Shown one piece after another: positions 7,646 through 7,829 of a stretch of 49,174 bases of DNA. Source of the DNA: Escherichia coli (GTDB lineage Bacteria; Pseudomonadota; Gammaproteobacteria; Enterobacterales; Enterobacteriaceae). The stretch lies in the NCBI RefSeq assembly GCF_003334255.1, contig NZ_QOWU01000040.1. The stretch is one strand, 5' to 3'. Numbering within the stretch: position 1 is the stretch's first letter; each line of letters opens with the position of its first letter. Below the pieces are notes generated by a model. That model did no database searches. It saw nothing but the letters and a program-made list of their open reading frames with translations, and was not told the origin of the DNA. The position numbers and the translations under genes are program-made.

Positions 7646-7829
7646 GCCGGATGCGGCGTGAACGCCTTATCCGGTCTACCGATCCGGCACCAATGTAGGC
7701 CTGATAAGACGCGCCAGCGTCGCATCAGGCATCATGCACCAATTGCCGGATGCGGCGTAAACGCCTTATCCGGCCTACGGTTCGGACTATTTGTAGGCAC
7801 GATAAGACGCGACAGCGTCGCATCGGGCA
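7646..7829. repeat. BIME cluster: four REP units in alternating orientation
   Basis: Two direct copies of about 100 bp, each holding GCCGGATGCGGCGT(G/A)AACGCCTTATCCGG(T/C)CTAC followed by an inverted partner GTAGGC..GATAAGACGCG.CAGCGTCGCATC.GGC. Confidence 0.8.

Follow-up and report, generated by a model that had tools for sequence, protein, structure and literature searches.

REP and BIME elements at three convergent gene junctions of an Escherichia coli chromosome segment: catalogued family members most likely acting as transcript 3'-end hairpins

The systems closest to the elements described here are the bacterial interspersed mosaic elements (BIMEs) of Escherichia coli, which are built from repetitive extragenic palindromic (REP) units. 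In the Gilson/Bachellier classification, as given in Ton-Hoang 2012, BIME-2 consists of y and z2 units with short linkers in tandem multiples, and BIME copy number is variable among strains; BIME-1, also termed RIP or RIB, consists of a z1 unit, an L linker that frequently carries an IHF site, and a y unit. The family has been described as polymorphic at fixed loci, both in presence and in copy number (Ton-Hoang 2012; 2026 preprint), and approximately 30% of convergent junctions hold REPs (Harris 2026 preprint). REP325, located in a 3' untranslated region (3'UTR) between yjdM and yjdN, is both a partial Rho-dependent terminator and an mRNA stabiliser (2026 preprint). In this study, a stretch of 49,174 nucleotides of an E. 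coli chromosome (contig NZ_QOWU01000040.1; hereafter, the window) was analyzed, and seven REP units were found in it, spread over three junctions, namely, fadA-fre with four units, rhtB-rhtC with one, and yigE-uvrD with two. The units belong to the E. coli REP (palindromic unit) family. They are most likely working as transcript 3'-end hairpins, and the probability of this reading as a whole, family membership with a 3'-end role, was put at about 0.85. The three elements are already catalogued in K-12 in identical or nearly identical form, and nothing in them departs from the known family.

The identity of the units was determined from consensus, fold, and copy number. The y and z2 consensus sequences were the E. 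coli K-12 sequences in Table 1 of Nunvar 2010, and up to three mismatches were allowed for y. On the + strand, the y consensus matched at 7646-7679, 7745-7778, 26720-26753, and 34898-34931, that is, four matches, whereas 100 dinucleotide shuffles gave an expectation of 0.00. The z2 consensus matched at 7695-7731 (0 mismatches) and 7793-7829 (2 mismatches), two matches against 0.00 expected by chance. The seventh unit, at 34966-35001, is diverged, and its consensus match is partial. A prior-free repeat search recovered the same families, D1 in four copies and D6 in two copies 98 bp apart. When each unit was used as a blastn-short query, no further REP copy above noise was found in the 49 kb. 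The initial annotation had called these sequences typical enterobacterial REPs, and this is borne out, as six units lie within three mismatches of the published y or z2 consensus and the elements are catalogued in K-12.

All seven units fold alike into an imperfect hairpin with an internal mismatch,.((((((((.((((....)))).)))))))).... in bracket notation. The single-unit folds have energies of -16 to -22 kcal/mol and z-scores (z) of -4.0 to -5.6, with z = -3.3 for the diverged unit. Identity among the units across the three unlinked loci is 67-100%, and their alignment gives a 13-pair consensus stem in which 5 of the 13 pairs show compensatory changes. The head is GTAG in five of the seven units, while the rhtB-rhtC unit has GTAA instead and the uvrD-proximal unit has TTAG; from their sequences, these two look like decayed copies. 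Moreover, a query containing the units matched every genome in a survey of 5426 complete E. coli genomes (5426/5426), with a median of at least 38 places per genome. These results bear on the possibility that the palindromes are gene-specific terminators or chance inverted repeats and that the open reading frame (ORF) at 7658-7867 is a real small gene. A 69-codon ORF is indeed present and the hairpins sit where terminators are expected, but the consensus test (0 matches expected by chance) and the copy-number test refute this explanation, and each E. coli genome holds dozens of copies of the sequence. It was accordingly given almost no credence. The ORF itself (+ strand, 69 aa, GTG start) was rejected as a gene, with no Pfam match at E ≤ 10 and no RefSeq annotation; in other strains, the unit number changes by steps of approximately 91-99 bp, which are not a multiple of three, and the frame thus cannot be conserved. 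The initial annotation had already regarded this ORF as spurious, which is consistent with the missing Pfam match and annotation.

Each of the three REP-bearing junctions is convergent, with the units between the two stop codons; of the eight convergent junctions that the window contains, three hold REPs. In the K-12 annotation, there is about one REP element per 13 kb. The 49-kb window holds three REP elements, or four when REP290 (described below) is counted, and the density is as expected. The features are listed in Table 1. The units lie essentially where the initial annotation had placed them, at three convergent junctions, and the four units that it had counted after fadA are, by consensus matches, y, z2, y, and z2. 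As for the ends of the elements, the yigE-uvrD element stops at 35001 and not at 35005, which belongs to the uvrD stop codon, and the rhtB-rhtC element with its tail extends to 26753.

Table 1. Positions of the REP units, associated features, and flanking genes in the window. For REP units, the strand is that of the unit head; energies are for single-unit folds.
Feature	Position	Strand	Remarks
fadA	6476-7639	+	stop TAA 7637-7639
fadA-fre unit 1, y-type REP	7645..7679	- (GTAG head)	1 mismatch to y consensus; -19.6 kcal/mol, z -4.0
fadA-fre unit 2, z2-type REP	7695..7731	+ (GTAG head)	0 mismatches to z2; -21.9 kcal/mol, z -5.5
Rfam naRNA4 (RF02564) match	7698..7775	-	92.1 bits vs gathering score 59.5; model 1-77 of 77
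fadA-fre unit 3, y-type REP	7744..7778	-	0 mismatches; -21.3 kcal/mol; family D1, 99-bp spacing
fadA-fre unit 4, z2-type REP	7793..7829	+	2 mismatches; -16.3 kcal/mol; family D6, 98-bp spacing
intrinsic terminator of fadBA	7891..7916	+	7-bp GC stem (7891-7909) then T7
fre	7922-8623	-	3' end at 7922
rhtB	26091-26711	+	stop TGA 26709-26711
rhtB-rhtC y-type REP (K-12 REP289)	26719..26753	-	-19.6 kcal/mol, z -5.5; identical to MG1655
rhtC	26773-27393	-	3' end at 26773
yigE	34094-34858	+	stop 34856-34858
yigE-uvrD left unit, y-type REP (site = K-12 REP288)	34897..34931	-	1 mismatch to y; -21.1 kcal/mol
yigE-uvrD L-type linker, 34 nt	34932..34965		aligns along its length with K-12 BIME-1 linkers
yigE-uvrD right unit, diverged y-like REP	34966..35001	+	TTAG head; GG>AA in outer stem
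uvrD	35005-37167	-	stop TAA 35005-35007

In the fadA-fre array (7645-7829), neighbouring units are inverted relative to each other, in the order y, 15-nt linker, z2, 12-nt linker, y, 14-nt linker, z2, with a period of 98-99 bp. As the alternating inverted y and z2 units, short linkers, and tandem multiples match the definition in Ton-Hoang 2012, the array is a BIME-2, and no material difference from that class was seen in the layout, the 12-15-nt linkers, or the variable copy number. Unit 4 is slightly degenerate, with one stem mismatch and two substitutions that weaken the stem. The entire fadA-fre spacer folds with -131 kcal/mol (z = -7.1). The naRNA4 match covers units 3 and 2, that is, one head-to-head y+z2 module. 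Since a single y+z2 module of REP325 served to build the Rfam family, this match restates the identity of the BIME-2 module; the family describes in effect a repeat module and not a unique gene, and its proposed HU/nucleoid function is disputed (2026 preprint). The fadA-fre array resembles REP325 in being a BIME-2 array in a 3'UTR, but REP325 has 12 hairpins and lies in a tandem gene pair, whereas the present array has four and lies in a convergent pair.

The BIME is placed within the fadBA 3'UTR because the intrinsic terminator of fadBA lies 61 nt downstream of it, with 5 nt left to the fre stop codon. Read on the fre strand, this terminator hairpin (7891-7909) precedes AAGAACGG instead of a U-tract, and transcripts of fre probably continue into the BIME. 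The 7830-7916 region, which comprises the 61-nt segment and the terminator, was retained in every two-, four-, and six-unit allele examined. A structured 3'UTR with a U-tailed terminator hairpin is also the usual layout of 3'UTR-derived small RNAs (sRNAs).

In the case of rhtB-rhtC, the single y unit occupies a 61-bp spacer, and its stem lies 23 nt past the rhtC stop on the other strand. The stem carries a compensated variant, GTCGGAT/ATCCGAC, which is shared by the K-12 mutT-yacG copies. In the rhtC sense, the U-rich sequence AUUAUUUUU comes after the hairpin.

The yigE-uvrD element, the left unit of which lies 39 nt from the yigE stop, shares with BIME-1 (RIP/RIB) the tail-to-tail inverted units, the 34-35-nt L linker, the single copy, and the listing as BIME-1 in K-12. 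The z1 unit and the L linker were defined from Ton-Hoang 2012 and from the K-12 example loci yaaX-yaaA, gcd-upstream, and mutT-yacG, and the element is collinear over its whole length with the BIMEs at these three loci. The linker reads TGCAATTTATTGAATCTGAATGATTTT at yigE-uvrD compared with TGCAATATATTGAATCTGCATGCTTTT at yaaX-yaaA. Within it, positions 34941-34953 form an IHF-like core that reads ATTCAATAAATTG on the - strand, with one mismatch to WATCAANNNNTTR; the gcd copy has a perfect core, AATCAATGGATTG, at the equivalent position, and the yaaX-yaaA copy shares the mismatch of yigE-uvrD. Judged by this motif, the linker is a probable IHF site. The part of Prieto 2012 (IHF chromatin immunoprecipitation) that was available does not mention REPs. 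No z1 unit (GCCTGATGCGCTACGC...) was found in the element, and both units bear the y signature GCCGGATG. Because a y unit stands in the z1 position and the diverged unit in the y position, the element is best called BIME-1-like or atypical and not a canonical z1+y BIME-1. The diverged unit folds with -17.4 kcal/mol on the - (uvrD-sense) strand compared with -12.0 kcal/mol on the + strand; since the GG>AA change leaves G-U pairs, it is fully paired only as uvrD-sense RNA.

All three elements were compared with K-12. REP288, REP289, and the K-12 fadA-fre BIME-2 are at the same loci, and the rhtB-rhtC and yigE-uvrD elements are base-identical to MG1655. The K-12 fadA-fre array shares its y and z2 units and its linkers with that of the window, but it comprises six units and the window four, so that the window has one 98-bp y+z2 module fewer. 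This BIME-2 is probably K-12 REP291, a number interpolated from neighbouring labels. In Table DS3 of Sutormin 2018, a 280-bp 'BIMEs2' interval is labelled fadA>-<fre, the rhtB-rhtC REP corresponds exactly in offset to a 33-bp interval, and a 102-bp 'BIMEs1' interval lies at 3637550, where 3637549 was predicted from the yigE-uvrD offset. The REPIN/RAYT systems of Pseudomonas and other gammaproteobacteria (Nunvar 2010) likewise have inverted REP doublets, a GT(A/G)G head, and a single-copy Y1 transposase; however, their sequence families differ, and the window is without a RAYT gene, E. coli yafM being located elsewhere in the genome.

The K-12 annotation also lists REP290 at metE-ysgA. Its counterpart in the window, at 19806-19828, has the sequence ACCGGGTGGT-ATT-ACCACCCGGT and forms a perfect stem of 10 bp; flanked by an A-rich tract and, on the opposite side, by a T-rich tract, it fills the 39-bp convergent spacer between metE and ysgA. 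The hairpin showed no similarity to y or z units and, by its sequence, looks like a plain bidirectional intrinsic terminator.

From their anatomy and from K-12 data on the homologous loci, the primary role of the elements is most likely at the RNA level, as 3'-end hairpins in termination and mRNA protection. The convergent genes of each pair would transcribe into the element, and GC-rich imperfect hairpins would form in the nascent or mature RNA of either strand. These hairpins would terminate transcription leakily, in part with the help of Rho, and would stand in the way of 3'->5' exonucleases, and transcript 3' ends would thereby be defined and protected on both sides. In the case of fadBA, the array would act as part of the 3'UTR, between the stop codon and the intrinsic terminator. 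In the case of fre, which has no U-tract after the terminator hairpin, the BIME-2 array would be the next barrier. An effect on translation is also conceivable, as the stems lie 6 nt past the fadA TAA, 8 nt past the rhtB TGA, and 4 nt past the uvrD TAA and may stall terminating ribosomes and lower the yield. According to Liang 2015, as quoted by a citing paper, a REP less than 16 nt past a stop codon leads to ribosome stalling and lower translation; the three genes fall into this class because their stop-to-stem distances are below 16 nt.

The terminator role fits the dual role of REP325, the mapping of REP288 and REP289, and the lack of another hairpin in the two short spacers. In the part of the Harris 2026 preprint table that was available, REP288 (uvrD:yigE) and REP289 (rhtC:rhtB) are within experimentally defined bidirectional terminators of convergent genes. 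No other terminator-like hairpin was found in the rhtB-rhtC and yigE-uvrD spacers. Of the REPs, only the one at rhtB-rhtC has a U-rich tail, and only in the rhtC sense; a simple terminator scan did not call the REPs. The remarks of the initial annotation that REPs can stabilise mRNA 3' ends and bind gyrase or IHF correspond to the standard literature, with K-12 data at REP288/REP289 for the 3' ends and at fadA-fre for gyrase; for IHF, the yigE-uvrD linker is a predicted site.

In another explanation, a DNA-level role is primary, with BIME-2 as a strong gyrase site, the L linker as an IHF site, and naRNA4-like RNAs and HU bridging REP cruciforms. In the K-12 Topo-seq data of Sutormin 2018, the fadA-fre array contains gyrase cleavage sites (ciprofloxacin, Cfx, 0; rifampicin plus ciprofloxacin, RifCfx, 1; microcin, Micro, 0; oxolinic acid, Oxo, 3) and BIME-2 is enriched for such sites, but the array has only one to three of them, none with ciprofloxacin or microcin, while the rhtB-rhtC and yigE-uvrD intervals in the same tables have 0 and BIME-1 is depleted of them (Sutormin 2018). 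Similarly, the L linker is conserved and has the IHF-like core, but the IHF site at yigE-uvrD is a prediction. As for HU, there is the naRNA4 match at 7698-7775, and condensation by HU and naRNA4 was reported in Qian 2015, whereas a 2026 preprint from the same laboratories found no nucleoid compaction by REP325 and no REP-REP contacts. Accordingly, a primary DNA-level role was considered improbable. In the preferred RNA-level reading, the binding of gyrase (to BIME-2, a cleavage site in K-12) and of IHF (to the L linker, a probable site) would be secondary properties.

Several points weigh against the preferred reading. The functional evidence was transferred entirely from K-12 and does not come from this strain. 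The examined part of the bidirectional-terminator table does not list the fadA-fre BIME-2. For the DNA-level properties, K-12 fadA-fre has 0 gyrase cleavage sites under ciprofloxacin, and the BIME-1-type and single-REP loci show 0 gyrase cleavage sites. Moreover, the REP is missing at rhtB-rhtC in 12% and at yigE-uvrD in 44% of E. coli genomes, and thus neither of these two REPs is essential. The GTAA and TTAG heads suggest decay rather than a maintained function as a TnpA-REP substrate.

Comparison among strains, as the initial annotation had proposed, showed that the copy number at fadA-fre varies, with six units in MG1655, four in the window, and two in other strains. From 28 evenly spaced rows of the survey, it was roughly estimated that two-thirds of the genomes have two units, one-third have four, and a few have six. 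The two-unit state comprises two distinct alleles, and a four-unit array in a different order was also found; the two-unit alleles are consistent with deletions between different module pairs. Unequal recombination between the 98-99-bp modules would generate the two-, four-, and six-unit alleles. The spread and rearrangement of the family are due to the REP-associated Y1 transposase (TnpA-REP/RAYT), the gene of which lies outside the window.

At the other two junctions, the REPs alternate with genes. The REP spacer of rhtB-rhtC is present in 4770 genomes, while 646 of 5426 have a 1.06-kb spacer that holds a gene for an Rpn-family (recombination-promoting) nuclease and no REP (for example, NZ_CP115324.1, 1653-2708, in place of 26712-26772 of the window). 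Identity among the copies of this cassette is at least 99%, and this points to a recent event in a single lineage. At yigE-uvrD, the BIME-1-like spacer is present in 3012 of 5426 genomes, and exactly the remaining 2414 have a 903-bp gene of the SAM-hydrolase/halogenase family (DUF62-type; for example, NZ_CP028589.2, 495-1523, compared with 34859-35004 of the window). As the copies of this gene diverge by up to 5-10%, the yigE-uvrD polymorphism looks old. In both polymorphisms, divergence begins at the stop codon of rhtB or yigE. The rhtB-rhtC replacement reaches the rhtC stop, and the yigE-uvrD alleles share a stretch next to uvrD. In the gene-bearing allele, the hairpin after uvrD is REP-like but different, GCGGGATGCGGTG-CGCC-CACCGCATTCCGC, and the uvrD-proximal half of this hairpin is homologous to the inner half of the diverged unit in the window.

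From these alleles, it might be proposed that REPs and BIMEs arise at, or actively mediate, gene gain and loss at convergent junctions. The route could be cleavage by TnpA-REP or Rpn-type recombination that uses REP hairpins. Alternatively, the REPs and the genes are independent occupants of the spacers, and an involvement of REPs in gene gain and loss was regarded as very doubtful. In an outgroup search with the back-translated C-terminus of uvrD, two Buttiauxella contigs were found in which uvrD is not followed by the REP/BIME of the window; yigE was not compared. The same search gave a contig from a bin named 'uncultured Alistipes sp.' (CASFSC010000051.1, 4950-5063), which carries E. coli uvrD and yigE as well as the BIME-1-like element of the window, changed by a single substitution; this contig is most probably mis-binned E. 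coli in a public metagenome-assembled genome. Separately, a match with 81.8% identity was rejected as a divergent lineage, since the assembly is rich in errors and its genes are frameshifted.

In a further explanation, the elements are essentially neutral or selfish passengers, non-autonomous sequences spread by the REP-associated transposase, amplified by recombination, and tolerated at convergent junctions, where insertions are harmless, without a selected local function. The copy number of two, four, or six units at fadA-fre and the absence of the REP alleles from 646 (rhtB-rhtC) and 2414 (yigE-uvrD) of 5426 genomes agree with this explanation. The two units without the GTAG head that TnpA-REP requires are also in its favour, but compensatory changes keep the hairpins paired. 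Across the genome, the effects of REPs on half-life are weak and variable (2026 preprint); on the other hand, convergent pairs with REPs are expressed at higher levels than pairs without (Harris 2026 preprint), and the deletion of REP325 alters the expression of both neighbours (2026 preprint). Furthermore, bidirectional terminators have been mapped in K-12 at REP288 and REP289, and the two short spacers have no alternative terminator hairpin. Thus, it was considered unlikely, though not markedly so, that the elements are passengers, and a role at transcript 3' ends was preferred.

The window itself is an E. coli chromosome segment with the gene order hemG–fadBA–fre … rhtB/rhtC … yigE/uvrD … hemCDXY. 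It is collinear with the reverse complement of strain 300709 (NZ_CP025903.1, 4347590-4396763), from which the RefSeq annotation was carried over by the rule that the window position equals 49175 minus the locus coordinate. Up to position 47226, 10 substitutions separate the two sequences, and there is one indel of 6 bp. This indel, the sole one over 49 kb, is in a CCTGCA hexamer repeat at 47213-47226, at the 3' end of the hemX ORF (+ strand), with two copies in the window and three in strain 300709, and it corresponds to an in-frame Pro-Ala repeat. In addition, Rfam matches were obtained for the Erse small RNA (RF02757; 14921-15172, - strand, 319.5 bits), within the 3' part of the ubiJ (yigP) coding region, and for the GlmZ sRNA (RF00083; 48512-48718, - strand, 218 bits), in the hemY-aslA intergenic region. 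In the cyaY-lptM gap (approximately 40787-40965), the RefSeq annotation of the near-identical strain has a truncated, frameshifted pseudogene fragment of the DKNYY family.

As catalogued members of the best-studied bacterial repeat family, the elements have little discovery value. For annotation, the ORF at 7658-7867 should not be called a gene, and the naRNA4 match should be taken as a BIME-2 module and not as a dedicated sRNA gene. For the biology of E. coli, fadA, rhtB, and uvrD are candidates for REP-dependent dampening of translation, as the hairpins lie 4-8 nt past their stop codons. Moreover, the three junctions provide a natural allelic series, which could be used to measure the effect of REPs on neighbouring genes without engineering.

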